Shown here: piece by piece, positions 1-12,575 of the stretch
How positions within the stretch are numbered: the first letter of the stretch is position 1
Layout: each line of letters opens with the position of its first letter
Source: Escherichia phage ph0011
Length of the DNA: 64,000 bases
Sequence record: OP557969.1
Direction: 5' to 3' (one strand)
Position numbers and translations under genes: made by a program
The notes under the pieces: generated by a model
The model's input: the letters and a program-made list of their open reading frames with translations, nothing else
What the model was told of the DNA's origin: nothing
The model's database searches: none

Positions 1-51
1 AAAGTACACATACAGAGAAGTACTAAAACTTATCTCTATATAAGGTAATAT

Positions 52-240
52 ATGAACAATTTTGAGTACTACTTCAATAAACTAAATTCCATAGAACAAA
101 ATATGCACAAAACATATATTAAGTACTATCAATCATCTGCATCTGGAATTAAAAATATATCAATAAAGATTATCACTAACCGTGTACTGACACCTGAACG
201 TGATATGTATATTGATGTACTGAAACTCATCTCTGTGTAA
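52..240 (+). CDS. small hypothetical protein, divergent FamA-like
   Basis: 62-aa ORF; N-terminus MNNFEYY resembles the downstream KEYYT mini-protein array. Confidence 0.4.
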   Translation: MNNFEYYFNKLNSIEQNMHKTYIKYYQSSASGIKNISIKIITNRVLTPERDMYIDVLKLISV

Positions 241-250
241 GGAATAAACT

Positions 251-430
251 ATGAACAATTTCTATATAGAACACATAAACATTAAAGACCGTTTCATGTA
301 CGACACCTTCGTGAAGTACTACAACCTCGCAACTAACAGTACTAAAAATATTAATCTCAATAGCTGCATACACCAAGCACTAACAAAAGATAATCCCTTC
401 AGGGAAATCCTCGCTCTCGCATCTGTATAA
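251..430 (+). CDS. small hypothetical protein (about 59 aa), FamA-like N-terminus
   Basis: ATG shortly after upstream stop; N-terminus MNNFYIEH; below ORF-track length cutoff; coordinates hand-read. Confidence 0.35.
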   Translation: MNNFYIEHINIKDRFMYDTFVKYYNLATNSTKNINLNSCIHQALTKDNPFREILALASV

Positions 431-441
431 AGGAATCTAAT

Positions 442-1104
442 ATGAAACTTAATCAACACAGCAAACAATACCTTAAGCACTTTAAATACCTCAACAGTAT
501 TCAAGCAGAATCAGTTACATCATCTTATACGTATCACCCGAATATACTAAAGAAACGAAATAAAAAGAAAAAATCCAGAAATGTTCTCGTATCTAAGAAC
601 CTCAAATCGTACTTGAAGAAAAATAATATAGCTCTTGCTTTTATTAGTATCTATAATACTGATTTAAAAGTATTGAGTACTAATACCAGCACAAAAGCAC
701 TAAAGAATGCATCTATCTATATACACATTGATAATATCCCGTGCACTATAATTCTATCTTTCGGGAATGTATACTTCTTCGGGAATTGTAATAGCACCCA
801 TGATATCAGTACTGCACAATTCCAAATCGGAGATATGTACTGCATGGGTTCAGAAAAAATACACGATAACATGCACTTCTTCCAAAAGCAACGTACTAAC
901 GAAACTGATACAGTACTGCAATTCCTCAAAGAACTAGAACACAAAGAATTATCCGACGAAGAAGAATTCATGTACAGTACTGTAATCGATAATCCAGGAC
1001 TCTATAAAAACGCGTACAAACTAACAAAACATGTCCAGGAACTTATCAGTACTGATAAGAAATTTCATCACCTCATTACGTATATAACCTCTACAATGTC
1101 CTAA
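442..1104 (+). CDS. hypothetical protein (220 aa)
   Basis: Long ORF; RBS-like AAGGAA upstream; no recognisable domain. Confidence 0.5.
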   Translation: MKLNQHSKQYLKHFKYLNSIQAESVTSSYTYHPNILKKRNKKKKSRNVLVSKNLKSYLKKNNIALAFISIYNTDLKVLSTNTSTKALKNASIYIHIDNIPCTIILSFGNVYFFGNCNSTHDISTAQFQIGDMYCMGSEKIHDNMHFFQKQRTNETDTVLQFLKELEHKELSDEEEFMYSTVIDNPGLYKNAYKLTKHVQELISTDKKFHHLITYITSTMS

Positions 1105-1125
1105 CTCTAATATATAGATACTAAT

Positions 1126-1317
1126 ATGAAAAATCAATACAAAGAACTATACACAAAATATTTCCCCCAGTACCTGATCGAACACCTGGAACATACCAGA
1201 AACTTAAACACTAAAATTAATAAAGCAAGATTCATTATGTGCACTAAATCAGTAATAGATACTACCAACTATAATAGCGTACTATATCACATCCTGTACC
1301 TAACATTCGTGTACTAA
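1126..1317 (+). CDS. FamA mini-protein
   Basis: N-term KELYTKYFP, central MCTK, C-term LTFVY; tandem array. Confidence 0.55.
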   Translation: MKNQYKELYTKYFPQYLIEHLEHTRNLNTKINKARFIMCTKSVIDTTNYNSVLYHILYLTFVY

Positions 1318-1327
1318 AGAGAACAAT

Positions 1328-1510
1328 ATGCATAAAGAATACTACACAAATAAACTCCCTATGCATCTACAACACCTTATACCAATAAAACCTATTGGCA
1401 TAAAAGATCATGAAAAAATAATGTTCCAACAATGTACTAAGTACACCCTAATAGACGATGACAATCCATATATGCTGTACTATATAATAATGCTAACATT
1501 CAGGTACTAA
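1328..1510 (+). CDS. FamA mini-protein
   Basis: N-term MHKEYYT, C-term LTFRY. Confidence 0.55.
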   Translation: MHKEYYTNKLPMHLQHLIPIKPIGIKDHEKIMFQQCTKYTLIDDDNPYMLYYIIMLTFRY

Positions 1511-1511
1511 T

Positions 1512-1700
1512 ATGAATAACCACAAAGAATACTACACACAATTCCTCCCCAGCATTTTTGAACACTACGCCAGATATAAAGTCCCTCTGGATAACGAGTT
1601 GGCAGTACTCGGATTCAATAACTGCATAGAACGAAGTATAGAAAATAGTAGTACATATGACCAATTGTTTAACACTATCCTACTTATATTCAGGTACTAA
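1512..1700 (+). CDS. FamA mini-protein
   Basis: N-term HKEYYTQF, C-term LIFRY; 1-nt spacer to upstream stop. Confidence 0.55.
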   Translation: MNNHKEYYTQFLPSIFEHYARYKVPLDNELAVLGFNNCIERSIENSSTYDQLFNTILLIFRY

Positions 1701-1701
1701 T

Positions 1702-1890
1702 ATGCATAAAGAATACTACACAAAAGATTTTCCAATGTACCTCAAAACTAATCTATTAGATAAACCCCGCAACATCAATGCTCAAAACGATAAAGTGTAC
1801 TTTACTATGTGCACTAAAGCATGTATACTAGATTTTGATAGCTATCATCGAGTACTGTATCATACCCTGTACCTAGCTTTCGTGTACTAA
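1702..1890 (+). CDS. FamA mini-protein
   Basis: Start moved to internal MHKEYYT (track ORF 1657 reads through upstream gene); C-term LAFVY. Confidence 0.55.
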   Translation: MHKEYYTKDFPMYLKTNLLDKPRNINAQNDKVYFTMCTKACILDFDSYHRVLYHTLYLAFVY

Positions 1891-1900
1891 AGAGGCCAAT

Positions 1901-2107
1901 ATGAACGAACAGAAAGAATTTTACACCAAACACCTCAGTACATCAGAACAAATGTTTCTAAGGAGTGTATCACCTTTACGTTTAGATACACCACACGCCA
2001 GAGATTGCTTTAATAATTGTATACGTATTACTCTAGAAGCTTTAGAAAACAATAACAAAAATATTCAGTACTCAGGCGTAATGGGACTAATATTCTTCTA
2101 TGAATAA
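1901..2107 (+). CDS. FamA mini-protein
   Basis: N-term KEFYTKHLS..EQMF, C-term IFFYE. Confidence 0.55.
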   Translation: MNEQKEFYTKHLSTSEQMFLRSVSPLRLDTPHARDCFNNCIRITLEALENNNKNIQYSGVMGLIFFYE

Positions 2108-2288
2108 CAAAGAATTCTACTTAAACCATCTGGAACTAAACTCCCAAATGCTTATACCACTAAAACCAATAGATATCAAGGATAAGAAAAATACCAAACA
2201 ATTCCACTACCACACACTATGTGCTATCAACCCAGATTATAATACATATAAATTGTTCTACATCATCACCCTAATACTCAGGTACTAA
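2100..2288 (+). CDS. FamA mini-protein
   Basis: N-term NKEFYLNHL, C-term LILRY; overlaps upstream stop. Confidence 0.5.
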   Translation: MNNKEFYLNHLELNSQMLIPLKPIDIKDKKNTKQFHYHTLCAINPDYNTYKLFYIITLILRY

Positions 2289-2289
2289 T

Positions 2290-2475
2290 ATGCACAAAGA
2301 ATACTACACACAATTCGTTAAAGAAAACTACAAACACGCCGTACACATAAAACCATTAAATTCTAATGACCCAAATACCATATTCTTGTTTAAGGACGCA
2401 ACACGTACAGTACTCAATACTAAAGATGAACAGGTGCAGTACGTATTCTTACTATTACTTATATACAGACACTAA
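2290..2475 (+). CDS. FamA mini-protein
   Basis: N-term MHKEYYTQF, C-term LIYRH. Confidence 0.55.
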   Translation: MHKEYYTQFVKENYKHAVHIKPLNSNDPNTIFLFKDATRTVLNTKDEQVQYVFLLLLIYRH

Positions 2476-2480
2476 CTAAT

Positions 2481-2690
2481 ATGAATACAGAACATAAAGA
2501 ATTCTATTCCAAACACCTCAGCCCCTCAGAACAAATGTTTATAAGATCTACACCACCATTAAGTACTGATACATATTTCGGCAGAGTATGCTACAATAAA
2601 TGTGTACAAATGACTTTAAACGCAAACGACAATAATAACAGTACTAACATGTACTCAGGTATAATAGGTATACTATTTCTATATGATTAA
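2481..2690 (+). CDS. FamA mini-protein
   Basis: N-term EHKEFYSKHLSPSEQMF, close paralog of 1901..2107. Confidence 0.55.
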   Translation: MNTEHKEFYSKHLSPSEQMFIRSTPPLSTDTYFGRVCYNKCVQMTLNANDNNNSTNMYSGIIGILFLYD

Positions 2691-2865
2691 AGAACATAAA
2701 GACTTCTACATAAGAAAACTAACATTCGTCCCCGTAAAAATATACAAAGAATGCGACCCAAGATTATACCTGTGGCACTTCAATGAGTGCATAAAAGATT
2801 CTATATACCCTAAGAACTACAAAGAACAATTGTGCTCAGTACTAACACTAGTACTATCATATTAA
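2683..2865 (+). CDS. FamA mini-protein
   Basis: N-term KEHKDFY, C-term LVLSY; overlaps upstream stop. Confidence 0.5.
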   Translation: MIKEHKDFYIRKLTFVPVKIYKECDPRLYLWHFNECIKDSIYPKNYKEQLCSVLTLVLSY

Positions 2866-2878
2866 TAGAGATAATACT

Positions 2879-3082
2879 ATGAATAAAGAACATAAAAACT
2901 TCTATATAAGTAAACTAAAAGAAAATGAACAAGCATGGATTAGAACTATAATAATACTTCCATTTAATAGATACGCACTGAATAGATGTACACAGATTGC
3001 TATAGACCCTTATCCCATTGAAGAGGATGTACAGTACAATCAATACTACTATATCTTAATGCTTATATATAGACCTATATAG
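2879..3082 (+). CDS. FamA mini-protein
   Basis: N-term KEHKNFYISKL, C-term LIYRPI; RBS GAGA upstream. Confidence 0.55.
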   Translation: MNKEHKNFYISKLKENEQAWIRTIIILPFNRYALNRCTQIAIDPYPIEEDVQYNQYYYILMLIYRPI

Positions 3083-3098
3083 GAAATTACACAGGCGA

Positions 3099-3148
3099 AT
3101 TGTTAAAATTCAGCCTGCCATACGTCTGTATTGTTAAAATTCAGCCTG
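3099..3148. repeat. direct repeat ATTGTTAAAATTCAGCCTG x2
   Basis: Two 19-bp copies about 12 bp apart at start of non-coding hub. Confidence 0.6.
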
Positions 3149-3228
3149 GACAAATTCGATCACCAGGATTCTCTCCAGGCTAAACCACGTAACTCTACAG
3201 AGAAGCTATTAGCTTCTCTTTGTCATAT

Positions 3229-3460
3229 GTAGTCATAAGTAATCATATATAAACATTTAAGTAATCATTTATAATCACAGTAGTGAACAGTAGTGAGTAC
3301 TAGAGTACAGGAATGTGCACGTTTAATCAAGAACGTAGCAGTACTGATATGCCACTAAGTAGGCAGAGGAAGTCTGCCGTACTTTGTAGTTTCCAAGCTC
3401 CTTTTCCATTTTGCAAATTACATCAACTGTAATCAAAAGTAATCACATAATGATTAGTAC
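3229..3460. repeat. cluster of short direct repeats (GTAATCA about 5 copies, ACAGTAGTGA x2) and a GGCAGA/TCTGCC hairpin
   Basis: Seen by eye in non-coding sequence. Confidence 0.45.
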
Positions 3461-3489
3461 TGAATTATTACTTTCACCTTAATTTCAAT

Positions 3490-3560
3490 TACCCCTTTAC
3501 CCTTCGGGGTAAATGTATTTTTATCCATTTACCTTTGGGGTAAAATCCCATTACCCCTTG
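3490..3560 (+). other. cluster of consecutive short hairpins (TTACCC-TTCG-GGGTAA and variants)
   Basis: Three tandem GGGGTAA-containing inverted repeats, first with UUCG-type loop. Confidence 0.4.
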
Positions 3561-3744
3561 AGGCTCCAGCAAAAAGTTGGAAAGTACTCCATCGTAAATC
3601 TGGATCGTAAAAATTTTGGAGTACCTATGAAATAAAAGTTGGATCTTCGAAAGTTGAAATTTACGTTGGGACGTTTATGATTTGTGGGATATAATGAGTT
3701 TTGTAGCGATACAGTTTATACGATTTTAGAACTGCATAATGAAA

Positions 3745-3775
3745 GAAAGCTATTGACATTATGATTCAGTACTGT
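3745..3775 (+). promoter_or_regulatory. sigma70-type promoter with no ORF downstream
   Basis: TTGACA, about 16-bp spacer, TATAAT with TG upstream of -10. Confidence 0.5.
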
Positions 3776-4179
3776 ATAATGTTCTACATAGGGTGATGAC
3801 TTGCCGCAAACATTTCATTGACTCTACCTCCTGTCGTGAGACAGTACAGAAAAGATAGTTCCTCCTGTGGTGGTACATCTTTTTGAACCTCATGTAAAAA
3901 AACGTAATAACAGTACTGATATTAACAGAATGGTGTCAGTACTGACTTTAATCTAATACATTATGCCACCAGCACAAGCTGGTGGATTCCCTCTAACAGT
4001 ATTCAGTACTACATGATAGTCTTCATCCTCCTAGGGTAACATAGTGAGGGCTATTGTGGGAGTACTGAATACTCCTTTCAAAAGATAGAATAATGGTATA
4101 GTACCGACGGATTTTGGGCGTAGTTACCCTGGGTGGATTTTGGACGTAGATATGTCTAGCCCTCCAGAAGTCTGGAAGT

Positions 4180-4300
4180 AAAGATGGCTATCTATCTAGA
4201 CGGCTAAACGGCTAGATTTCTAGATGGCTGTATGGCTAGACGTTTGGATGGCTAAACGGCTAGATGGTTACACGTCTGGAAGTATAGACGGCTAAATCAA
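4180..4300. repeat. iteron-like array of GGCTA(GA) repeats
   Basis: At least 8 GGCTA copies at about 8-12 bp spacing, flanked by two GTCTGGAAGTA copies. Confidence 0.6.
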
Positions 4301-4634
4301 AATTTTTATTTTGTTTTTCCAATAGTTCCCCTACCGCGTGAGGATATTTTTCCCCGCAGTATCTGGAGTTAGATTTTTCTGAATCTGGAATCATTATCTA
4401 ATAAACTGGGGGCAATGTCAACCGCCTGGATGAATATTTTTAAAAAAATAATCTAGTACTGAATTTTGGGCGTAACTATGCACCCGGTGGGCTTGAGTCT
4501 TTCTCGACTTGATGGAACTATTATACAGTACTGAAAAAATAAAGCAATACCCTGGAAGCAAAAAAATTTTAATTAATTTGCTTGCTATTCTGGGCCGTAC
4601 TATGGTACTATTAATTCAGTACTGAGAAAGTGCT

Positions 4635-4722
4635 TTTACCTGCTAGGGTGCGGGAGTGTATCCTTTTTAAATTTTATGAATTTTGGGCAGATCTCCGCAC
4701 CCTGTGGGTTAGTGCCTTGTGT
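4635..4722. repeat. inverted pair of GGGTGCG-core element (AGGGTGCGGGAG ... CTCCGCACCCT)
   Basis: Arms about 45 bp apart; same core recurs at about 6530, 13520, 17240, 20520 and 23260. Confidence 0.5.
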
Positions 4723-4992
4723 CCGGCTTATGTAGTAATTATACGCTTTTTCAGTACTGAGTCAATACCTAAAAACAAAATAATTGAAAATAATTTAACG
4801 CGTTTAAACGGCCCGTAAAGCCCTGGAATGATTAGAATGGTGCAAATGTATAGCTTAGGTGTATTAATGCGTTAGAATGCGTCTGAGGCCGTTTTACGGG
4901 GTATAGGGATGATTTAGTGGATTGATTCAGTACTGAATAATAGTACTCCTATATAGAAAGAAAACTATTTTAAAAGTATTTGTAGAAAGTAC

Positions 4993-5051
4993 TTGCACCG
5001 TACTGATAAAAGCGTATAATGTTTTACATCGAGAGCGGGAACACTTCCCGC
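4993..5051 (+). promoter_or_regulatory. early promoter plus 5' leader hairpin cassette
   Basis: AGTACTTGCAC -35, TATAAT -10, GTTTTACAT, then GCGGGAA-cac-TTCCCGC hairpin, then RBS. Confidence 0.6.
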
Positions 5052-5075
5052 TACACATTAAGAGAGATTAAAACG

Positions 5076-5438
5076 ATGGCGACTCAAATCAATAAAATTA
5101 TTGCTAACCTGGTTAACTTCCGTGAAGAGATGAAAGGTCTTCCGGCTGAAACGGTAAAAATTCACATTTCAGCTTATCGGGAACTTATTGCAATGTTACC
5201 GCTTAAGCGTGAACAATACGCCGCTACCGTGATGCTTGATGCGATGATCAATAAGATGATCGCCAGTGATTTAACGATGGTTTATCAGTACATGGGCGAA
5301 AATTTCGCGGTGTCTGGTAAGCCAGTACCAGGGATGGCAACTACTGAGGAATTGCACGGTTTAAATTTAAAACAAGATGCATGGGATAATATGCCTCGTT
5401 TCCTGGTATGGGCTGACAGTGGCAAAATTTACAAATAA
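5076..5438 (+). CDS. hypothetical protein (120 aa)
   Basis: Start at MATQINK after hairpin and RBS AAGAGAG; track N-extension covers promoter. Confidence 0.65.
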   Translation: MATQINKIIANLVNFREEMKGLPAETVKIHISAYRELIAMLPLKREQYAATVMLDAMINKMIASDLTMVYQYMGENFAVSGKPVPGMATTEELHGLNLKQDAWDNMPRFLVWADSGKIYK

Positions 5439-5530
5439 GTTTAATAAAGTACTTGCATACTAAGTTAAAACAAGTATAATACTTTCTATCAGGTGGGGAA
5501 TAGTTCCCCACTATATAAGAGGATTAAAAA

Positions 5531-5770
5531 ATGGCTAAATCAAAAATGTTCTTAGGTCACAAAAACAAAACTCATTGGAATGTAAGCCTTTGGATTAATA
5601 ACGATGAATCATTATACCGGTTGGCCCTGGACTTTATTGCCGCCAATACTAATCGCAATGATGCGGCCCGTCATATGATGTTATTTTTAGAACAGACTGG
5701 ACAAGATAAAACACCGGACGGATTCAAATATAGCACTACTGCGATCCGTGCGGCGATGGTTGGAATGTAA
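5531..5770 (+). CDS. hypothetical protein, paralog of 7569..7808
   Basis: Shared GHKNKTHWNVSLWINN and TPDGFKYSTTAIRAAMVGM; own cassette. Confidence 0.7.
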   Translation: MAKSKMFLGHKNKTHWNVSLWINNDESLYRLALDFIAANTNRNDAARHMMLFLEQTGQDKTPDGFKYSTTAIRAAMVGM

Positions 5771-5860
5771 TAGAATAGAATTTATTTAAAGTACTATCAT
5801 TTTTTGCGATAGTACTTTATAATAGTGTTTTATTCATACACCAACGATAAGGGCAATAGC

Positions 5861-6127
5861 ATGAATATTAAGTATTTTGCGACGCGTGAACAAGCTCGGA
5901 AGGCGGCGAAAGTGGAAGGTGCAACGTTTAAAGATATGGGCATACAATCGGAACGTGGTAAACGTTGGGCCATTGTAAAGCGTAGTACAGCCAGATCATT
6001 ACAGTACTGGTTAGCGGCTTTAAAAAGTCCTGCTAGTGTATCGCGTCGAGTGGTAGAAATAAAGCTCGACCGTAAGGGGAATCGTGTTACCGTGTACCGT
6101 ACTAAAAAGATAGCAGTACTTGAATAA
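5861..6127 (+). CDS. hypothetical protein, paralog of 18547..18942
   Basis: Shared FYATRE..FKDMG..DRKGNRVTVY; start at MNIKY after RBS. Confidence 0.6.
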   Translation: MNIKYFATREQARKAAKVEGATFKDMGIQSERGKRWAIVKRSTARSLQYWLAALKSPASVSRRVVEIKLDRKGNRVTVYRTKKIAVLE

Positions 6128-6130
6128 AAA

Positions 6131-6195
6131 GTACTTGCAAACTATGCTTAAAAGCGTATAATACTTTATATCAGGGCGGGGGAATAGTTCCCGCC
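6131..6195 (+). promoter_or_regulatory. early promoter plus 5' leader hairpin cassette
   Basis: AGTACTTGCAA, TATAAT, GCGGGGGAA-tag-TTCCCGCC hairpin. Confidence 0.6.
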
Positions 6196-6214
6196 TATAA
6201 CCGGGAGTAATAAA

Positions 6215-6445
6215 ATGACTAATATGTATATGACTGAAGTTAAAACCGTAAAAGATACTACCACGAATAAAACTACTTACTTACAGCGGATCTGTGGTGT
6301 CTGGCAACGTATCAGCAAATCAAAGTACTTTAAATTAACATCATATGCCAATCGTTCGGATTCATTCAGTACTGAAATAAAAGGTAATAAAGTACACCAA
6401 TACGGCACTTATTATTATTATAGCCTGGACGCGATTGCAGTATAA
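6215..6445 (+). CDS. hypothetical protein (76 aa)
   Basis: ATG directly after hairpin and AGGAGT RBS. Confidence 0.6.
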   Translation: MTNMYMTEVKTVKDTTTNKTTYLQRICGVWQRISKSKYFKLTSYANRSDSFSTEIKGNKVHQYGTYYYYSLDAIAV

Positions 6446-6730
6446 GTAGTTTACAAATCTTTACAATTGCCGGTATTGACTTAAAATGTCAGTACTGGCA
6501 TAATGTATTCATTGGCAGATAAGCCGTGGCCCATAGGGTGCGGAAGTGTATCTATAGAAAAATTAGTTTAGTACAGTTACAATTGTGCACCCTGTGGGTT
6601 AGCTGTTGTCATGGGGTATATTATGCCAGTACTTGATAATGCTGTCAATACTTTTTTACTATTCAGTACTGAAAACTATTTGATAAAAAGTACTTGCAAA
6701 CTATGTTTAAAGGCGTATAATGTTTTACAT

Positions 6731-6803
6731 CAGGACGGGGAACGAAATAAGTAACTTCCCGTTAAGTAGCCCAGGAGTAAGGCATACGAAAAACTCCCCT
6801 GAT
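6731..6803 (+). other. structured about 75-nt leader element (copy 1), candidate small RNA or regulatory leader
   Basis: Starts at promoter +1 (CAGGACGGGGAACG...ACTCCCCTGAT), followed by a second promoter; near-identical copy at 17354-17424. Confidence 0.45.
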
Positions 6804-6871
6804 AAAATAGTTTGACAATTGTTTTTAAAAGCGTATAATACTTACATCAACTACTGAATGAGGGTTACAAA

Positions 6872-7483
6872 ATGAAAACTATCACTACTACTACTTATGT
6901 TATGGATTTTTCTGAATTGAACGCAGAACAAAAAACGTCAGCTATCGAACTGGTTCGGGAACGTGAAAAAAACTTAAACGACGATTATTTTTCTGAAAGT
7001 GAAATTGAATACTATAAAGAAACAGTACTACCGGAATATGGCATTAATGACGCAGAAATACAATTCAGTGGTTTTTGGTCGCAAGGTGACGGTGCATCAA
7101 TTAGTACTGACCACGTTGACGCAGTGAAGTTTTTACGTAAGGTAAGAGCATTAACTAAGTATCGCTCAATCCGTCACCTGCTGAATGAAGATGATTTGGC
7201 GATGAGTGTAAAGCGTTCTCACTCCCGCTACTCACATGAGAACACTGTAAGCGGGTACATTGAATCGGCTTACACTGATTTAACCGCAAAACAAGAAACG
7301 TTAGTTAATGAGCTTGAGGAACTGCTCACTGATACTATTCGTGAATTGTCACGCAAGTTATACCGTGATTTAGAGAATGCATATGAGGATCAATTCACTA
7401 CTGAAAACATCGTATCACTGATTGAGGGTAACGAATATCAATTCAATGTTATTGATGGCGTAGTAGAATCAATTGCATATTAA
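6872..7483 (+). CDS. hypothetical protein (203 aa)
   Basis: ORF with RBS GAGGG; tandem promoters upstream; no confident family call. Confidence 0.65.
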   Translation: MKTITTTTYVMDFSELNAEQKTSAIELVREREKNLNDDYFSESEIEYYKETVLPEYGINDAEIQFSGFWSQGDGASISTDHVDAVKFLRKVRALTKYRSIRHLLNEDDLAMSVKRSHSRYSHENTVSGYIESAYTDLTAKQETLVNELEELLTDTIRELSRKLYRDLENAYEDQFTTENIVSLIEGNEYQFNVIDGVVESIAY

Positions 7484-7485
7484 AA

Positions 7486-7550
7486 AGTACTTGCAAACTA
7501 AGTTTAAAAGCGTATAATACTTTATATCGAGGCGGGGAATGGTTCCCCGC
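7486..7550 (+). promoter_or_regulatory. early promoter plus 5' leader hairpin cassette
   Basis: AGTACTTGCAA, TATAAT, GCGGGGAA-tgg-TTCCCCGC hairpin. Confidence 0.6.
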
Positions 7551-7568
7551 TCAAACGAGGATTTAAAA

Positions 7569-7808
7569 ATGGCTAGTACTAAAACTTACAACGGTCACAA
7601 AAACAAAACTCATTGGAATGTTTCCTTATGGATTAATAACGGTGAGTCATTGTATCGGCTTGCTCAAAGTTGCATCGCACAATGTAAAACTAAAGATATT
7701 GCGGCCCAATGTATGTACCGCAGATTAAAAGCCAACGGTACTACTACAACGCCGGACGGATTCAAGTATAGCACTACGGCGATCCGTGCTGCAATGGTTG
7801 GAATGTAA
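7569..7808 (+). CDS. hypothetical protein, paralog of 5531..5770
   Basis: Start at MASTKTYNGHKNKTHW after hairpin and RBS. Confidence 0.7.
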   Translation: MASTKTYNGHKNKTHWNVSLWINNGESLYRLAQSCIAQCKTKDIAAQCMYRRLKANGTTTTPDGFKYSTTAIRAAMVGM

Positions 7809-7864
7809 CATTCAGTACTGAATCAATGGCGGGTGTGGTTCCCGCCTTTACTGAGGATTATCTA

Positions 7865-8146
7865 ATGAGTAAAGTAATTAACTATACAGTACTAAGCAAG
7901 TCATTATCTATTAGCCAGTGCACCGATGGTTTTTGGCTGTACGATGAAACGCGTGGTATGAATTTAGCTATGCAGGAGAAAACTCCTGATGCGGCATATC
8001 TTAAAGCACTGGAATACTACCAGAAGCGTTTAACGGAAGTAGAAAACAATTATCAGAATCTCAAAGAGAAAGTAGATAATTTCGTTGGTCAATTCGTTGA
8101 CGATGACGAAGGGCACTACTGCGACCGTTGCGGATCTTACAGTTAA
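7865..8146 (+). CDS. hypothetical protein (93 aa), C-terminal CxxC
   Basis: Start at MSKVINY after GGCGGG..CCCGCC hairpin and RBS GAGGAT. Confidence 0.55.
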   Translation: MSKVINYTVLSKSLSISQCTDGFWLYDETRGMNLAMQEKTPDAAYLKALEYYQKRLTEVENNYQNLKEKVDNFVGQFVDDDEGHYCDRCGSYS

Positions 8147-8163
8147 GTACTAAGGATTATATA

Positions 8164-8367
8164 ATGAGTGATTTAATTGAACGTATCAAAGAGCTTGAAG
8201 AAAAAGAATTACAGCTAATCGGCTTACAGAATAAAATCTATCATGATTTGGGGAGTTTTATCAATGCTTGGGATAGTGGCGATCCTGATGCGTTACCTGC
8301 TAACCGCCAGGCAATGATCAATGATGTGCGTGGTGTCTTTGAGTATGTTTTAAAGCAATTAAATTAA
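8164..8367 (+). CDS. hypothetical protein (67 aa)
   Basis: Start at MSDLIER after RBS TAAGGA. Confidence 0.55.
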   Translation: MSDLIERIKELEEKELQLIGLQNKIYHDLGSFINAWDSGDPDALPANRQAMINDVRGVFEYVLKQLN

Positions 8368-8370
8368 AAA

Positions 8371-8436
8371 AGTACTTGCAATTAGTTTTTAGTACTGTAT
8401 AATGTTTTACATAGAGGGGAGAAAATGGTTCTCCCT
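8371..8436 (+). promoter_or_regulatory. early promoter plus 5' leader hairpin cassette
   Basis: AGTACTTGCAA, AGTACTGTATAAT, GGGGAGAAA-atg-GTTCTCCC hairpin. Confidence 0.6.
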
Positions 8437-8454
8437 AGTAAAGAGGAAAATAAA

Positions 8455-8676
8455 ATGGCTAATATTACTACTCTTTCCCAACTTGAAGCACTGGTTAAAT
8501 CTATGCGGGAACATGCCGACAAAATCGGCGTAAAAGATCCAGCCGTTTGCTTTTGTGACGAATTGAATGATGATACATTGGTAATAGCAGAAGTCCAGGA
8601 CGTTTCTAACTATTCATCGCGTTACACTGGCGGCGTAGCAAATAAAGGTGACTTCTGTTTATACCTTACCAAATAA
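8455..8676 (+). CDS. hypothetical protein (73 aa)
   Basis: Start at MANITTL after hairpin and RBS AAGAGGAAA. Confidence 0.65.
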   Translation: MANITTLSQLEALVKSMREHADKIGVKDPAVCFCDELNDDTLVIAEVQDVSNYSSRYTGGVANKGDFCLYLTK

Positions 8677-8840
8677 CAACGCGGGGAGATAATAACTCCC
8701 CGTTACTTTTTCAGTACTGAATCATTTAATAGACGGATCTATGCACCCGGTGGGTTAGTGACTGTTTCGTCTTGATGTAGTAATTATGCCAGTACTGGAT
8801 GCGGTTGTCAAGAACTATTTTTCAAATACTTTTTACTAAA

Positions 8841-8906
8841 GTACTTGCTAATAGTTTTTAAACGCGTATAATGTTTTACATAGCAAGGGGAAACGGTTTC
8901 CCCTGG
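8841..8906 (+). promoter_or_regulatory. early promoter plus 5' leader hairpin cassette
   Basis: AGTACTTGCTA, TATAAT, GGGGAAAC-g-GTTTCCCC hairpin. Confidence 0.6.
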
Positions 8907-8924
8907 TAACTAAGGAATAAGAAA

Positions 8925-9161
8925 ATGATCGAACAAATCAAATCAACGTCTGCGAATGTAACGGGAACGGTATCACACTTTACTAGTGATGAATCGCGGG
9001 GCGTACCCTATTGTGCTGTACATGTAAACACTGAGGGTAACTACTGGTTTACGGTTTACGGATCATATTCATTTGGACGGCCAGGGCATCAAAAAATTCT
9101 GGATAAAGTACAGCCAACGGGTAAAAATATCACTGCTGAAATGTTTTATAAAAAATCATAA
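8925..9161 (+). CDS. hypothetical protein (78 aa)
   Basis: ATG after hairpin and RBS TAAGGA. Confidence 0.65.
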   Translation: MIEQIKSTSANVTGTVSHFTSDESRGVPYCAVHVNTEGNYWFTVYGSYSFGRPGHQKILDKVQPTGKNITAEMFYKKS

Positions 9162-9162
9162 A

Positions 9163-9228
9163 GTACTTGATAATAGTTTTTAGTATTGTATAATATTTTA
9201 CATCGCAAGGGGGAGCGGTTCCCCCTGG
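9163..9228 (+). promoter_or_regulatory. early promoter plus 5' leader hairpin cassette
   Basis: AGTACTTGATA, TGTATAAT, GGGGGAGC-GGTTCCCCC hairpin. Confidence 0.55.
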
Positions 9229-9245
9229 TAACTAAGGATAATAAA

Positions 9246-9545
9246 ATGAAAATTGCAATCATCGCCCTGGCTTTATCTGTTTCCTCTTTCGCTGTTAATG
9301 CGTCATTAGATGTAAGTAGTGAAAAATTCATTCAGTGCACTGTTGCAATGACCGATGAAAGAACTGGCGAGATTGTATTAAAGGATTTAGAGATCCAGCC
9401 GGAAGCATTTAAAAACGGCCCGTTCCATGAAGAAGACGAAAACGGTAGTACAACAATTTATTATGATGCTAGTACTAAACGCGGTTCGGTCACGGTTATG
9501 GATACTGAGAAAGTAACTCATACAGGCGTTATTAATTGCCGTTGA
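9246..9545 (+). CDS. small secreted or periplasmic protein (99 aa) with Sec-type signal peptide
   Basis: N-terminus MKIAIIALALSVSSFAVNA with AxA-like cleavage site; two Cys in mature part. Confidence 0.6.
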   Translation: MKIAIIALALSVSSFAVNASLDVSSEKFIQCTVAMTDERTGEIVLKDLEIQPEAFKNGPFHEEDENGSTTIYYDASTKRGSVTVMDTEKVTHTGVINCR

Positions 9546-9566
9546 TTGATACTACGGGGTAACATC

Positions 9567-9797
9567 ATGACTAAGCGAATAGTTTTACTTAACGCTGGAA
9601 GTACTACACAACTCCTTAACGCCGTGCATTATGATATTGAAACGAGCGTCAATCTTATCAGTACTGTAGTATTGTTGGACACTGGAAAGGTCGCAAATGA
9701 TAAAGCGATTGCAGGTATACTAACGGATCTTAAACCAGGTTGCAGTACTCCAATAACTTTAAATGATAAAGTGTTTAATATTTTACTAACTGATTAA
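9567..9797 (+). CDS. hypothetical protein (76 aa)
   Basis: ATG 22 nt after upstream stop; weak RBS; intrinsic terminator follows. Confidence 0.45.
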   Translation: MTKRIVLLNAGSTTQLLNAVHYDIETSVNLISTVVLLDTGKVANDKAIAGILTDLKPGCSTPITLNDKVFNILLTD

Positions 9798-9803
9798 GTA
9801 CAT

Positions 9804-9830
9804 AGCCCACCAGGTGGGCTTTTTTGTTTT
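9804..9830 (+). terminator. rho-independent terminator
   Basis: AGCCCACC/GGTGGGCT stem then TTTTTTGTTTTT. Confidence 0.75.
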
Positions 9831-9872
9831 TGTAGTATTGTAGTACTGAGATACTTTGAAAATAGTTTTAAA

Positions 9873-9915
9873 AAAGTAGTTGACATTACCGCAAAAAGGC
9901 GTAGAATGTATTACA
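9873..9915 (+). promoter_or_regulatory. sigma70-type promoter followed by long structured leader
   Basis: TTGACA, 17-bp spacer, TAGAAT; about 100-nt leader related to the 6731 element. Confidence 0.5.
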
Positions 9916-10030
9916 TCAAGACGGGGAGCACTAAGTAGACCGCCAGTAAGTCGAACGAAAAACTGGACACGTCGAGAAAACTTTGATACACTAATAAACG
10001 TAAACTAAACTTTAATTGAGGATTTATAAA

Positions 10031-10513
10031 ATGGCGAATGTAAAATCATTTCTGAAAGCACTGATTTCCAACGATACTGCTATTGCGGCTGAACTGCTGG
10101 CGGATCTGGATAACGATACCATGAAAGCAGTACGCAACAATTTTAACATTGCGTACAGTGAAGCTAAAGAACTGCAAGCCAAAAAGGTAGCAGAACTGGA
10201 AGAACAGAAAAAAGCCCGTGAAGAAGAACTACAAGCAACGATTGAAAGTATTCAGGCGGCAGTTGCTGGGTTGGATCTGGATGTAGTTGTAGAAATGGCA
10301 CATAAAGCCCTGGCAGTTAAGTACGGGGAAGATAAGCCAGTAGCTAAACCTAAAAAATGGATTCAGGAACGCGTAACGGTTGTTCTTGATAATGGCGAAG
10401 AACATTTAATTCCCGTGCGTGGTAACTGCATTGCGGTAGTTCTGGATGCTATCAAAGAAAGCGGATTGACTCGCGAGGAATGGATCGAAGCTCACCGCAA
10501 AATTGAAGCATAA
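10031..10513 (+). CDS. hypothetical protein (160 aa), coiled-coil-rich N-terminal half
   Basis: Start at MANVKSF after RBS GAGGAT; charged heptad-like segment EEQKKAREEELQ. Confidence 0.65.
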   Translation: MANVKSFLKALISNDTAIAAELLADLDNDTMKAVRNNFNIAYSEAKELQAKKVAELEEQKKAREEELQATIESIQAAVAGLDLDVVVEMAHKALAVKYGEDKPVAKPKKWIQERVTVVLDNGEEHLIPVRGNCIAVVLDAIKESGLTREEWIEAHRKIEA

Positions 10514-10534
10514 CAATTAAAGTACTGAATCACT

Positions 10535-10568
10535 AGCCCACTTCTTATAGTGGGCTTTTTTGTGTTTA
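10535..10568 (+). terminator. rho-independent terminator
   Basis: AGCCCAC/GTGGGCT stem then TTTTTTGTGTTT. Confidence 0.7.
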
Positions 10569-10788
10569 TCGTTTACCAGTCCACTAGCACCGCCTAGAGT
10601 CGATTCTAACGCATTAAACTGATTATCTGATGAATAGCCCTAGCTGGTGGCGTTAATGCCGTTAGAACGCGATTGAGGACGTTTAAAGTATTTTGCAAAA
10701 AGTAATAAAAAGTACTTGCACGATTAAGAGATTAGAGTATAATTAATTACATCAAGACAAGACACCTTAACTAACTGAGGATATAAAG

Positions 10789-10941
10789 ATGAATACTTAT
10801 GAACTGGATTGTTTCACTTTACAAGTAATGTCAGTATGCAGTAAAAAAGATTGGTCATCAAAGGAATTTAAAGCAGTTATTGCGTGTGCAAAACACGGCA
10901 AGACTATCAATGAAACGGCATCAATCATTGATAAACTTTAA
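10789..10941 (+). CDS. micro-protein (about 50 aa), Cys-containing
   Basis: Promoter (TTGCAC..TATAAT), RBS GAGGAT, ATG; below ORF-track cutoff; hand-read. Confidence 0.4.
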   Translation: MNTYELDCFTLQVMSVCSKKDWSSKEFKAVIACAKHGKTINETASIIDKL

Positions 10942-11012
10942 AAAATAGTTTGACAATAGTTTTAAGTACTGCGATAATACATACATCAACTACTGAATAG
11001 GAATAAAAAACA

Positions 11013-11240
11013 ATGGCTATCGTAATCACTCGCGTAACTGGTACTACTGGCACTGCTTCAACTGTTGCTGTAATTACTAATAAGAAAGGTGCAGAATTAC
11101 ATTTTGCAATGGATAAATGGGCCGTTAATGAGTTTGGTCAGTGGGCAAGTGTAGAATACATTGAAACCTATCAAGTGCCATCGATTAGCTTAACTGATTT
11201 AGGTGTAGAACGTATCCTTTGCCTGGATGAATTAAATTAA
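11013..11240 (+). CDS. hypothetical protein (75 aa), Thr/Gly-rich N-terminus
   Basis: Promoter TTGACA..CGATAAT upstream; RBS AATAGG. Confidence 0.55.
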   Translation: MAIVITRVTGTTGTASTVAVITNKKGAELHFAMDKWAVNEFGQWASVEYIETYQVPSISLTDLGVERILCLDELN

Positions 11241-11326
11241 AAAAGTACTTGCAAAGTAAATCAAATAAAGTATAATACATTACATCAAGGGGAGAAAATG
11301 GTTCTCCCCACTAAGAGGAAACTAAT

Positions 11327-11470
11327 ATGAAAACTTGTCAATGTGGTAAAAAATCTATTACGGGTTTGAAACGGGGCGTTGCACTTTGCCAGTATCATTA
11401 TAATGCTCAAGTATGGGGTAAAGAATGGGCCGACCAGGTGGAAGCAGCAAAGAAAGCAAAAAGTAAGTAA
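11327..11470 (+). CDS. micro-protein (about 47 aa), possible zinc-ribbon (CxCG ... CQYH)
   Basis: Complete cassette: promoter, GGGGAGAA/TTCTCCCC hairpin, RBS AAGAGGAAA, ATG; hand-read. Confidence 0.45.
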   Translation: MKTCQCGKKSITGLKRGVALCQYHYNAQVWGKEWADQVEAAKKAKSK

Positions 11471-11482
11471 AAATATTATCAC

Positions 11483-11520
11483 AGTACTATTGACATAGAT
11501 TGATAGTACTGGCATAATAG
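11483..11520 (+). promoter_or_regulatory. class-2 early promoter (AGTACTATTGACA ... AGTACTGGCATAAT)
   Basis: TTGACA, 17-bp spacer, CATAAT, AGTACT flanking both elements; same module at about 14366 and 22582. Confidence 0.55.
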
Positions 11521-11551
11521 ATTTTATCAAGACAACTAAGAGGAAATTAAA

Positions 11552-11896
11552 ATGGCTAACATCAATACTATAGCAGCACAAAATATCAACCTGTCTTCTG
11601 TTGAAGTTGTACACATTGCCGCCCGGCGTTGGTTCCAGGCGTCTTATGGTAATACTTATTTCTCTTTAACGGTAGATGTTGAAATCAATGGCGAATTTAT
11701 TGAAGTAGTAAACGTGCCGTTCCAATATGGCTACGGGGATCATTTTGACACTGTAGCAATGGAAGAATTTAGCAAGGTTATTAATATGGAAGGTAAAGAG
11801 TTTTTACGCGGTTCTTATCTTTCCCGTTTTTGCCGTGATAATAATATTACTGTTTATAGTTCTGTTAGTGATGTTAAACGCAAAAAAGATCTTTAA
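11552..11896 (+). CDS. hypothetical protein, paralog of 18128..18451
   Basis: Shared GNTY, YGYG and C-terminal DVKRKKD; RBS AAGAGGAAA. Confidence 0.7.
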   Translation: MANINTIAAQNINLSSVEVVHIAARRWFQASYGNTYFSLTVDVEINGEFIEVVNVPFQYGYGDHFDTVAMEEFSKVINMEGKEFLRGSYLSRFCRDNNITVYSSVSDVKRKKDL

Positions 11897-11976
11897 TTAG
11901 CTTTACTTTATGCAGATACTTTGATATAGTGTCTGCATAGGGGAAAGAAATTAAATCAACTTAAGAGGATAGTAAA

Positions 11977-12246
11977 ATGAAAAATATCAGTACTTTAATC
12001 GATGCAGGTACACATGTTCGTCGGTCTATGGTTGCAACCAGTTCTACAAAACAAGTAGCGAGCGGTTATCTTGTATTTGTGCACGATGGTAAACTCCTGG
12101 AACGTTCAATCAATTTTGATGTTAAAAACAATTGCCGTTTTATTATCTTTCGCCGTGAACAATATAAGATCGACATTCCAGCGAAGCCCATTAGCGGGGC
12201 GTACAACGTGCAATCATTGTTTGAGCGTCAACCATACACCTATTAA
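11977..12246 (+). CDS. hypothetical protein (89 aa)
   Basis: RBS AAGAGGA upstream. Confidence 0.6.
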   Translation: MKNISTLIDAGTHVRRSMVATSSTKQVASGYLVFVHDGKLLERSINFDVKNNCRFIIFRREQYKIDIPAKPISGAYNVQSLFERQPYTY

Positions 12247-12570: not shown

Positions 12571-12575
12571 TTAAT

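Follow-up and report, generated by a model that had tools for sequence, protein, structure and literature searches.

Between the FamA array and the first early gene of Escherichia phage ph0011 (sequence record OP557969.1), an Asteriusvirus resembling the jumbo coliphages PBECO4, 121Q and G17, lies a region of about 2 kb that is dense in non-random repeats and has no evident gene. What purpose does such a region serve? The first-pass annotation described it as a gene-free regulatory hub at 3083-5018 with promoter-driven transcripts, and suggested a replication origin or a small-RNA locus. The window within which the hub is analysed here is the whole stretch of 64,000 nucleotides, to which all coordinates refer. 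That first reading overlooked a physical genome end within the hub, at 3357/3358, which is placed by the ends of five relatives.

The gene-free span and the genome end

The earlier view that the region has no credible reading frame is borne out. All 11 ORFs of at least 30 aa in the hub are disrupted in relatives; in most of the 12 relatives compared, stops or frameshifts interrupt every ORF of 30-62 aa in 3083-5075. A minus-strand ORF of 19 aa with a good AGGAGG upstream is also disrupted in relatives and was rejected as coding. Small “hypothetical protein” calls placed here in some records are probably spurious. The first early gene most likely starts at ATG 5076 rather than at 5019, a choice supported by the CDS annotations of relatives, so that the gene-free span becomes 3083-5075 and the right limit of 5018 gives way to a more probable 5075. 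A tRNA/tmRNA scan found none, and Pfam searches with the first early proteins and two FamA-side proteins gave matches to DUF7249 and DUF1033 or none.

The records of vB_Ec-M-J, BF17, fEgEco12 and E9.1, deposited independently of one another and of G17, all begin at position 3358, which is also where G17 ends. The termini of fEgEco12 were determined via PhageTerm and restriction digests, while the end of G17 is backed by read coverage. Since these five relatives share the end base, the hub straddles the left boundary of the terminal repeat. The comparison shows 3358 to be nucleotide 1 of a direct terminal repeat of about 21.3 kb (3358-24689), as transferred to the window phage from relatives that are 85-92% identical in this region. 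Outside the repeat are 275 variable bp, which are the last bases of the unique region, and inside it is a highly conserved leader of 1.7 kb; conservation is 0.85-1.0 on the repeat side and variable on the unique side. The left cut site reads CACTA/AGTAG (3353-3362, cut at 3357/3358). The right boundary of the repeat, at 24689/24690 (24680-24699, ...GGGTAACCT/TAGCGACTTC), is the same as the PhageTerm boundary of fEgEco12, where 24689 corresponds to position 20993, and again gives CTA/AG when read into the repeat. The only motifs that the two boundaries have in common are CTA/AG and GAAGTC(G/T)C, at unequal distances, and this likeness is suggestive but too short to rely on.

The flank on the unique side (3083-3357) has a conservation of 0.12-0.9, with indels, and contains a private 31-bp tandem duplication (3099-3148), GTAATCA at 3239 and 3261 and one CAGTACTG at 3339. 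The 19-bp direct repeat described earlier (3099-3117 and 3130-3148) is exact, but it is part of this private duplication and its first copy is 26% conserved. On the other side of the cut, the first 26 bases of the repeat form a terminal palindrome, AGTAGGCAGAGGAAGTCTGCCGTACT (3358-3383; fold -12.2 kcal/mol, z = -3.9), with AAGTC at +13 to +17, as likewise in phages Muenster and pEa_SNUABM_12. The GTAATCA repeats, already recognised at 3229-3460, comprise four copies (3239, 3261, 3429 and 3439), all on the + strand and making up half of the eight in the window. They stand on either side of the left cut site and are absent from the right boundary. The inner pair, with a 10-bp spacing, is accompanied by an inverted TGATTAG (3429-3457, + strand). 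These repeats may bind a protein and are candidate binding repeats for the terminase small subunit.

Promoters, a predicted structured RNA and dispersed repeats in the leader

A strong host-type promoter lies 396 nt from the genome end and points inward. It is a consensus sigma-70 promoter, TTGACA-16-TATAAT (3753-3780, + strand), which matches at 12 of 12 positions and confirms the promoter proposed earlier at about 3745-3775. The -10 box and the adjacent CAGTACTG are identical in 13 aligned genomes, the -35 box is TTGAC in all of them, and Klebsiella phage Muenster has a counterpart at 272-300. The transcript from this promoter folds into hairpins (z = -4.1). Based on the folding and on compensatory changes, which the covariation check across related phages finds in 7 of 47 RNA pairs, a non-coding RNA of about 100 nt is predicted at 3786-3885 (+ strand). 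It consists of a 5' stem-loop (3789-3826), a GUGA-loop hairpin (3831-3844) and a terminator-like hairpin (3849-3884) that ends at a T-run (3880-3884), in keeping with the transcript end expected near a U-run at about 3870-3890. The consensus promoter and its structured RNA are thus supported, and the idea of a regulatory, promoter-driven, non-coding transcript holds. Two CCTCCTG motifs are present as described (3827-3833 and 3861-3867), but their reading as anti-Shine-Dalgarno sites is weak, because the second forms the 5' arm of the terminator-like stem (CCUCC:GGUGG) and phage JNE01 has lost the other. The U-run of the terminator is degraded in the most divergent relatives, and by eye the Muenster and Erwinia counterparts of the RNA are just loosely similar. 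The RNA could not be assigned to a known family: an Rfam scan of positions 1-12000 at a permissive threshold gave no relevant match and one chance-level Trp-leader hit elsewhere.

Upstream of this promoter, a run of UUCG hairpins had been reported at 3490-3560. There is one true cUUCGg hairpin (3496-3513, + strand), but the second (3527-3544) arises from a private 31-bp duplication absent from most relatives and the third forms no hairpin. A highly conserved A/T-rich block (3566-3700, conservation 0.84-0.97) follows, with AAGTTGGA, AAATCTGGAT and TTTTGGAGTAC repeats; akin repeats occur at the matching relative position in Muenster and pEa_SNUABM_12. Beyond the RNA, at 3911-3985, is a CAGTACTG-N18-CAGTACTG hairpin or site pair (3911-3944) with an 8-bp hairpin (3966-3985). 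In relatives the hairpin loop is inverted or the stem is replaced here, and an ARNOLD terminator is annotated at the equivalent place in G17. Two GGATTTTGG(G/A)CGTAG repeats lie at 4109-4152 (+ strand), with more copies at 4461 and 4678.

The right half of the leader contains several more promoter-like sites. One, TTGACA-17-GATAAT (4393-4421, - strand; 11 of 12 matches), reads leftward into the 8-bp array discussed below. A weak one, TTGCTA-18-TACTAT (4582-4611, + strand), read from the sequence and not called by the promoter scan, points toward a long hairpin, and its Muenster counterpart is TTGCAA-18-TATAAT. From the other side, TTGACT-16-TATAAT (4738-4765, - strand), which also has a Muenster counterpart, is convergent on the same hairpin. 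The hairpin itself, AGGGTGCGGGAG ... CTCCGCACCCT (4638-4709, z = -3.0), is the inverted GGGTGCG-core pair of the first-pass annotation and is formed by two copies of a dispersed element, an eight-copy family confined to the terminal repeat. A highly conserved block including GCGTTAGAATGCG (4797-4900) precedes the first of 21 near-identical early promoters, AAGTACTTGCA-N17-TATAAT; a 5' hairpin (5034-5052) and then a ribosome-binding site separate this promoter from ATG 5076 (4987-5075 in all, + strand).

The many CAGTACTG sites noted earlier are present, eight of them in the hub, which is about 4-fold denser in them, but they are not specific to it: with 60 copies against 0.73 expected, the enrichment is a window-wide signal. 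An identity as SlmA sites was rejected, as just one site comes within 2 mismatches of GTGAGTACTCAC and the required G is disfavoured at the flanking positions.

The tandem 8-bp array

The “GGCTA iterons” of the first-pass annotation are a strict tandem array of 8-bp boxes, 793-936 nt from the genome end. By the published MetJ matrix, the array has 14 adjacent qualifying boxes (4182-4293) and two further in-register boxes at 4150 and 4166 (4150-4293 overall). The tandem arrangement was correctly seen, but its meaning as origin iterons is not upheld, as the boxes score as MetJ operator boxes. A MetJ operator is defined by at least two adjacent 8-bp boxes, each with at least one quarter of the consensus bit score (Augustus & Spicer 2011), and the run total has to reach the consensus score, a threshold of 12.58 bits. 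The 14-box array totals 99.7 bits, compared with at most 19.7 in 100 simulations, and is the sole qualifying site in 64 kb. As a positive control, the same scan of 45 kb of E. coli K-12 recovers the metJ/metB and metF operators only. The mean score per box is 7.1 in the phage and 6.2-7.8 in those natural operators. Box position 6 is distinctive, with G instead of T in about 60% of phage boxes versus 10% of natural ones, in a comparison whose boxes had been picked with the MetJ matrix itself; outside this position, variation among the boxes tracks the substitutions that the matrix tolerates. The array therefore passes the published operator thresholds, and binding of MetJ is predicted from its sequence. 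No array resembling it was found in the chromosomes of 5,426 E. coli genomes. A literature search on MetJ with phages found nothing relevant, which is no proof of novelty.

Every Asteriusvirus and Eneladusvirus genome checked has an array of 9-28 boxes, as do the T5-like phages AhSzq-1, Pontus and PR1. The boxes of PR1, at 9620-9690 within the left repeat (1-10461), come close to the consensus, and in the T7-like podovirus PGT2, a coliphage, a 9-box array occupies 38-109. In T5-like phages of Vibrio, Aeromonas and Providencia, arrays of this type lie close to the ends of repeats. MetJ is confined to five gammaproteobacterial orders, and 94 of the 95 phage records with an array carry host labels in MetJ-bearing orders, a correlation confounded by phage phylogeny. 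The hosts are Escherichia, Salmonella, Erwinia, Yersinia, Serratia, Pectobacterium, Cronobacter, Providencia, Vibrio and Aeromonas, with one record labelled Xanthomonas.

The layout of the hub recurs in the sister genera Alcyoneusvirus and Eneladusvirus, so that the module is conserved in at least three jumbo-phage genera. The PhageTerm repeat of Muenster likewise begins with an untranslated leader, of 1.3 kb, and a homologous block lies at a near-equal distance from the end in Muenster and the hub (1156 versus 1162 nt). Immediately after the array, an AT-rich run leads into the block TTTTTCCAATAGTTCCCCTACCGCGT (4294-4339, + strand; conservation 0.97), which comes after the array in three genera regardless of array type. 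The array itself can be exchanged. In a sister genus it is swapped for Fur-box-like repeats while the flanks are kept, and both Muenster and T5 have Fur-box-like arrays at the position of the MetJ-type array. The Muenster hub has 10 sites that agree with GATAATGATAATCATTATC in at least 13 of 19 positions, and the T5 injection stop signal (iss) has 5; in the ph0011 hub there are none, and Fur boxes were rejected there.

Function of the region and relation to known systems

The hub probably acts in cis as the end region of a linear jumbo-phage chromosome, where the cut, the RNA and a MetJ block would each have a part. Terminase would cut concatemers at CTA/AG, and the phased GTAATCA repeats on both sides, together with the terminal palindrome, may guide the cut. 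After entry, host RNA polymerase would start at the consensus promoter and produce the structured RNA of about 100 nt. On the 14-16 boxes of the array, host MetJ-SAM dimers would assemble into a filament, most likely forming a nucleoprotein block at a fixed site close to the genome end. By analogy with the repeat arrays of the T5 injection stop region, of which the array would be the counterpart, this block might gate DNA entry, read-through transcription or end processing. The convergent promoters round the long hairpin and then the first early promoter would complete the hub. The leader is followed, inside the repeat, by about 21 early transcription units, which have near-identical sigma-70 promoters and are all directed away from the end. 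A wider generalisation is much more tentative. In three unrelated lineages of virulent phages with exact terminal repeats (Rak2-like jumbo myoviruses, T5-like siphoviruses and a T7-like podovirus), host-repressor “super-operator” arrays may sit no more than about 1 kb from a repeat boundary, with MetJ-SAM here and possibly Fur-Fe2+ or DnaA-ATP elsewhere, and through such a gate the metabolic state of the cell could be coupled to genome entry, to end processing or to the early programme.

Other functions can be weighed against this reading of the hub as an end region. In a T5-type injection stop, the distal end (24689, in the right repeat copy) would enter first, the 21-kb repeat would be the first-step-transfer DNA expressing the early genes, and transfer would halt at the copy of the hub on the inner boundary. 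The topology fits, with an untranslated region at one repeat boundary, one copy of which is internal and the other terminal; array types are common to T5-like phages; and all 21 host-type early promoters are within the repeat. Even so, such a stop is rather doubtful. All genes of the repeat read away from the hub end, which fits a hub-first, transcription-assisted entry like that of T7 at least equally well, and the polarity of the array and the GCG block that follows it equals that of T5 entry only if the hub end goes in first. DnaA boxes (TTWTNCACA) are absent from both strands of positions 1-8000, and T5 A1, A2 and dmp have no credible match by tblastn in the 64-kb window, a test of low sensitivity; in T5, the second step of transfer depends on the pre-early genes A1 and A2. 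A literature search on first-step transfer in jumbo phages found nothing relevant. The lack of DnaA boxes also bears on the candidate origin of the first-pass annotation. At an origin of the iteron type, an initiator would bind the iterons beside an AT-rich unwinding element and flanking transcription would activate it. The AT-rich run at 4294-4320 right after the array, the promoter-like sites that converge on the region and a change of GC skew sign at about 3300-3500 speak for such an origin, yet the skew changes sign where one gene class gives way to another on one strand, the FamA array to the early genes. Furthermore, the iterons score as boxes of host MetJ, none of the flanking genes tested was recognisable as an initiator gene, Fur-like repeats take the place of the array in the sister genus, where the flanks are retained, and the same arrays in T5-like phages sit in the iss region while T5 origins map near the genome centre. 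The origin is not supported and is quite improbable.

The array could also act by titration rather than in cis. As a repressor decoy, it would sequester MetJ during replication and de-repress methionine and SAM synthesis, and the Fur-like arrays would do likewise for iron uptake. With 14-16 boxes and two arrays per genome, compared with 4 boxes at each of the two natural operators scanned, the numbers are in favour of this, as is the resemblance of the alternative arrays of Muenster and T5 to Fur boxes. However, the largest arrays are in T5-like phages, and T5 pre-early A1 is annotated for host DNA degradation and host gene shut-off, so that de-repression would be pointless there; that three unrelated phage families have the array at a fixed spot close to a repeat boundary also suggests a cis role, and a decoy is unlikely. 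Similarly unlikely is a binder other than MetJ, either a phage ribbon-helix-helix protein or another host protein of similar 8-bp specificity. Ribbon-helix-helix proteins of plasmids and phages typically bind contiguous arrays of short repeats, and since G is systematic at position 6 of the boxes, another protein of this fold could be the binder. Against it, box variation is otherwise of the kind that MetJ tolerates, the window contains no MetJ-like ORF or homologue, three unrelated phage families carry the array with no evident common protein, and their hosts are confined to MetJ-bearing orders with the one labelled exception. A hub that is chiefly a small-RNA locus, with the repeats as by-products, is highly improbable. 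It would account for the consensus promoter before a structured RNA with some covariation and for the convergent promoter-like sites around the long hairpin, but the RNA spans just 100-200 nt or so of 2 kb and has no Rfam match, the rest of the region is equally conserved, and location at a genome end explains more of the features.

With the genome end placed in it, an anonymous repeat-rich gap becomes a defined genome-end module, tied to the T5 injection stop region by array type and layout. If the iterons are indeed MetJ operators, and the T5 and Muenster arrays Fur boxes, host metabolic repressors would serve phages as structural components of the chromosome ends. Under the wider generalisation, the T5 injection stop signal, known for 40 years, would gain a molecular identity for its repeats. 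In the literature searched, the terminal repeats of these jumbo phages are on record, with no account found of their edge. For practical use, the exact coordinates allow collapsed Asteriusvirus assemblies to be re-oriented.

Four known systems come closest to the hub or to parts of it. The P1 pac hexamers and the lambda cosB R sites are terminase recognition repeats that flank the cut, and the hub likewise has short oriented GTAATCA repeats (10- and 22-bp spacing) flanking a precise cut, although its phage makes long exact terminal repeats rather than cohesive or headful ends. As in the MetJ operators of the gammaproteobacterial met regulon, the boxes are contiguous 8-bp tandem units near AGACGTCT, pass the published thresholds singly and as a run, and match metJ/metB and metF in score per box. 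In contrast to those operators, the hub has 14-16 boxes rather than 4, its array overlaps no recognisable promoter, G is frequent at position 6, and the array is on a virus chromosome. The left end of T7 has a terminal repeat of 160 bp, arrays of short repeats (CCTAAAG) and the host promoters A1-A3 before gene 0.3. Both that leader and the hub are gene-free (over about 1 kb in T7) and have short-repeat arrays beside the end, strong inward host sigma-70 promoters a few hundred bp from it and co-oriented genes downstream. The hub differs from T7 in that its repeat is 21 kb rather than 160 bp, there is no sequence similarity, and the CCTAAAG repeats are not metboxes.

By its layout and a shared array type, the hub resembles the T5 injection stop region, and two-step injection in these jumbo phages would be an analogy with T5. 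T5 differs in several respects: its injection stop signal has paired DnaA boxes in inverted repeats and GTGCAAATCCGACA repeats that the hub lacks, T5 itself bears Fur-box-like repeats rather than metboxes, and the unit of array and GCG block is inverted relative to the boundary. Nevertheless, the injection stop signal of T5 (Repeat Region 3), like the hub, is an untranslated region of 1.2-1.7 kb at one boundary of a long terminal repeat. Both overrun by about 270 bp into unique DNA, are conserved above the level of neighbouring genes, and have a tandem array, then a C-rich GCG block and then ATTTTGGG-type repeats. The 13-mer GCGTTAGAATGCG of the hub is also found, in extended form, at the start of the iss inverted repeat, and the T5-like Demerecviridae AhSzq-1, Pontus and PR1 carry the same MetJ-type array as the hub.

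Edge of a long terminal repeat

The hub, the gene-free, repeat-rich stretch at 3083-5075 between the FamA paralogue array and the first early gene, is matched in 42 phage records at 80-99% identity (87-92% among the best matches listed). These are mainly Asteriusvirus phages of Escherichia or Salmonella (PBECO4, 121Q, G17, SP27 and others), whose genomes measure 348-386 kb. Several records of about 361-386 kb contain the region twice, which is a pointer to terminal repeats. In G17 (370,817 bp), positions 1-20668 equal positions 350150-370817, and read coverage of this phage was described as showing "terminal redundancies of about 20 kb". Reverse-complemented, the right end of G17 aligns with the window from exactly 3358 onward, and the other boundary falls at 24689. 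Four further records (vB_Ec-M-J, BF17, fEgEco12 and E9.1) have the same first base and the sequence AGTAGGCAGAGGAAGTCTGCC; that of vB_Ec-M-J is annotated with "Direct Terminal Repeats" at 1-21525. The ends of fEgEco12 were called by PhageTerm (20,993-bp repeats), a result that restriction digests confirmed, and its right boundary, between ...GGGTAACCT and TAGCGACTTCG, is identical to that between window positions 24689 and 24690. Mapped onto the window, the ends of these relatives delimit a repeat at 3358-24689 (21,332 bp), and homology to measured relatives places a genome end at 3358. The hub therefore consists of 275 bp outside the terminal repeat and 1.7 kb inside it. The first-pass annotation had read the region as regulatory and transcribed, a reading that is retained, and had missed its identity as a terminal-repeat edge.

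Both cuts fall between CTA and AG when read from outside into the repeat, which opens with a palindrome of 26 bases (fold z = -3.9). The right boundary lies in a 220-bp gap (24536-24756) with three copies of AATGCGT(A/T), a motif that the hub contains twice (4866-4882); a GAAGTCGC motif 2 nt outside the right cut resembles GAAGTCTGC 11 nt inside the left cut. A terminal repeat of 8.3 kb has been reported for phage UE-S1 and was doubted in the fEgEco12 paper; since the hub lies at about 117.6-119.6 kb in the UE-S1 record, that record is not oriented on its physical ends.

The hub has no coding capacity: as had been claimed, it holds no credible open reading frame, none surviving comparison with 12 relatives. 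The 5-8 small 'hypothetical proteins' annotated within it in several GenBank records are not conserved and are probably spurious. A mechanical ORF at 5019-5438 begins inside a promoter; relatives annotate a 363-nt first early gene, which fits the ATG at 5076. The function of the first early proteins is not recognised. The 275 bp on the unique side are variable (conservation 0.12-0.9, many indels), and the repeat side is conserved at 0.85-1.0, at least as strongly as flanking coding sequence. All elements listed in the first-pass annotation are present in the hub, but its 19-bp direct repeat and the second hairpin of its UUCG run are products of private 31-bp duplications. These two separate tandem duplications (3099-3148 and 3494-3544) are private to this phage. 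GTAATCA, ATTTTGG and CCTCC are enriched in the hub (4 of 8, 5 of 10 and 4 of 13 window copies, respectively) and strand-asymmetric, the complement of each being absent from it.

Across the whole window, CAGTACTG occurs 60 times against 0.73 expected and AGTACT 248 times against 21, the latter both within genes and between them. In the first 24 kb the density of both is raised about 2.6-fold. AGTACT has a density of about 12.7 per 2 kb as far as the right repeat boundary and of about 4.8 past it. AGTACT is also frequent in the leaders of Klebsiella phage Muenster and of Eneladusvirus phages. The sequence on either side of it disagrees with the SlmA site GTGAGTACTCAC, and that reading was rejected. 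When 1-3400 is compared with 3400-12000, the GC skew has strongly negative values (-0.2 to -0.4) over the FamA array and turns positive exactly at the repeat boundary, although the direction of transcription is the same on both sides.

Promoters, predicted transcripts and layout

The consensus promoter proposed at about 3745-3775 is confirmed at 3753-3780, with 12 of 12 consensus matches. In all 13 aligned genomes its -10 box and the CAGTACTG next to it are invariant and its -35 box reads TTGAC, and it has counterparts in other genera. The 210 nt 3' of this promoter are predicted to fold into five hairpins (fold z = -4.1). Compensatory changes affect 7 of the 47 consensus pairs, and the GUGA-loop stem shows one such change. 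JNE01, EJP2 and A4 form the first stem from quite different sequences. The 8-bp hairpin at 3966-3985 has another stem in A4 and EJP2, and several phages carry its loop inverted: the 4 nt read ACAA in some relatives and TTGT in others, so the whole palindrome is flipped. The expected U-run and CCUCCUG motifs are both found, but in the third hairpin (3849-3884) the U-run is paired with an A-run and the second CCUCC is buried. The simplest product would be an RNA of about 100 nt; if the hairpin at 3966-3985 is a terminator, as ARNOLD predicts in G17, it would instead be about 200 nt.

Three further promoter-like sites (4421-4393, minus strand; 4582-4611, plus strand; 4765-4738, minus strand) suggest leftward transcription into the iteron array and convergent transcription across a long hairpin. 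A second gene-free island (6446-6871) holds a paralogue of this long hairpin (z = -5.7), also flanked by convergent promoter-like sites. Early promoters of the form AAGTACTTGCA-N17-TATAAT occur in 21 near-identical copies, all on the plus strand at 4987-23803; in those read directly, a short 5' hairpin separates the promoter from the ribosome-binding site. Since they are confined to the repeat, the repeat is the host-polymerase early region, with which an analysis of RpoD-like promoters in the related phage CBB agrees. A dispersed element of about 27 nt, GATACACTCCC-GCACCCTGTGGGYTAG, has eight copies against 0.08 expected, all within the repeat. Its orientation switches from plus in the left half (4480, 4697, 6587 and 8743) to minus in the right half (13519, 17243, 20517 and 23259), where the copies lie between a terminator and the next early promoter.

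By sequence comparison, the hub layout is older than the genus Asteriusvirus. In Muenster (Alcyoneusvirus), the PhageTerm repeat (1-20030) starts with a 1.3-kb leader, and the block homologous to window 4520-4661 lies 1156 nt from the end, compared with 1162 nt in the window. Muenster and the Eneladusvirus phages fHe-Yen9-04 and pEa_SNUABM_12 share one module order with the hub: AAGTC at +13 to +17 from the end, AAATCTGGA/TTTTGGAGTAC-type repeats, a consensus sigma-70 promoter, a tandem array, the block TTTTCCAWTAGYYMCCCTWCMGCGT, a promoter and long AGGGTGC...GCACCCT hairpin with convergent promoter, and the first early promoter. The hub region is strongly conserved across genera.

An array of predicted MetJ boxes

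The GGCTA iterons of the first-pass annotation have a strict period of 8 bp and score as predicted MetJ operator boxes (metboxes). Under the half-box matrix and rule of Augustus & Spicer (2011), in which each box reaches at least one quarter of the consensus score and a run of at least two adjacent boxes at least the consensus total, exactly one site qualifies in the 64-kb window. It comprises 14 adjacent boxes at 4182-4293 (99.7 bits), with further in-register boxes at 4150 and 4166; the maximum in 100 first-order Markov simulations is 19.7 bits. In 45 kb of E. coli K-12, used as a positive control, only the metJ/metB (31.2 bits) and metF (24.9 bits) operators are found, each with four boxes. 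The per-box mean of the phage array, 7.1, compares with 7.8 for metJ/metB and 6.2 for metF. Substitutions in the boxes are those that the matrix tolerates (G at position 1, A at 2, T at 4), except for a frequent G at position 6, a comparison that is partly circular because the boxes were chosen with the same matrix. By these scores the iterons are of MetJ-operator quality. All Asteriusvirus genomes examined keep the array, with 11-15 boxes and lengths that differ mostly by 8-bp steps. A similar array is absent from 5,426 E. coli genomes, and no MetJ homologue is encoded in the window.

Similarity searches with the array matched 75-95 records. Among them are Rak2-like jumbo phages, many T5-like Demerecviridae (phages of Vibrio, Aeromonas and Providencia) and the T7-like coliphages PGT2 and phiKT. 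In the jumbo phage CBB a feature annotated "redundant repeat" covers the match. Adjacent boxes number 28 in AhSzq-1 (221 bits) and 15 in Pontus. PR1 has nine near-consensus boxes (GGACGTCT, AAACGTCT) at 9620-9690, within its left repeat (1-10461) and at the place of the T5 injection stop signal (iss), and PGT2 has nine at 38-109 from its left end. The same predicted array marks repeat ends in phages unrelated to one another. In the T5-like phages DnaA boxes come before it and CCCTC(C)TGCGCC after it, and the corresponding GCGC in T5 bears the major single-strand interruption. Hosts of array-bearing phages all belong to orders that have MetJ, except in one record labelled Xanthomonas, a correlation confounded by phage relatedness. 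T5 and Muenster have no metboxes at the array position and carry Fur-box-like arrays there instead (T5 9549-9718; Muenster 783-905, 1073-1097 and 1300-1324), with up to 16 of 19 matches to GATAATGATAATCATTATC. At a threshold of at least 13 of 19 matches, there are 5 such sites in T5 against about 0.2 expected and 10 in Muenster against about 1. In the Eneladusvirus phages, the long hairpin has a single Fur-box-like box in its loop. No connection of MetJ with phage genomes emerged from literature searches, and neither Fur nor MetJ comes up in a preprint that compares 25 T5-like iss regions.

Possible roles and comparison with T5

It can be inferred from these features that terminase may recognise the GTAATCA repeats and the terminal palindrome, that the hub promoter would produce an RNA, that MetJ would occupy the array, and that the resulting nucleoprotein block might act as a gate. 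Either end of the DNA could enter first. With the hub end leading, the hub would resemble the T7 leader in its length of about 1 kb and its strong promoter directed inward, and the array-then-GCG unit would then be oriented relative to entry as it is in T5. With the other end leading, the 21-kb repeat would serve as first-step DNA in the manner of T5, and transfer would stop at the hub copy on its inner edge. A role of the array purely as a decoy is less likely, since the largest arrays occur in T5-like phages, the T5 A1 protein being annotated for host DNA degradation and gene shut-off, and since the fixed place near the repeat boundary favours a function in cis. The first-pass suggestion of a replication origin is the least supported reading of the hub: GC skew changes sign at the end, where the class of genes changes too, and the origins of T5 have been mapped to other places.

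T5 Repeat Region 3, the iss, was described by Davison as a highly conserved, untranslated 1.2-kb cluster of repeats and palindromes, mostly within the left terminal repeat with a 270-bp overrun into unique DNA. The hub has the same untranslated topology across a repeat edge with an overrun into unique DNA, as well as the array and GCG-block unit, ATTTTGGG-type repeats and the 13-mer GCGTTAGAATGCG plus extension. In contrast to the iss, it is without paired DnaA boxes and GTGCAAATCCGACA repeats, and no A1 or A2 gene is detectable in the window. The hub is not a member of the iss by the T5 definition; by analogy it may work like the T5 iss, or is at least built like it. It belongs to an already known kind, the untranslated control regions that sit on the edge of long terminal repeats, and its chief content is a predicted super-operator of the host MetJ type that it shares with T5-like phages.
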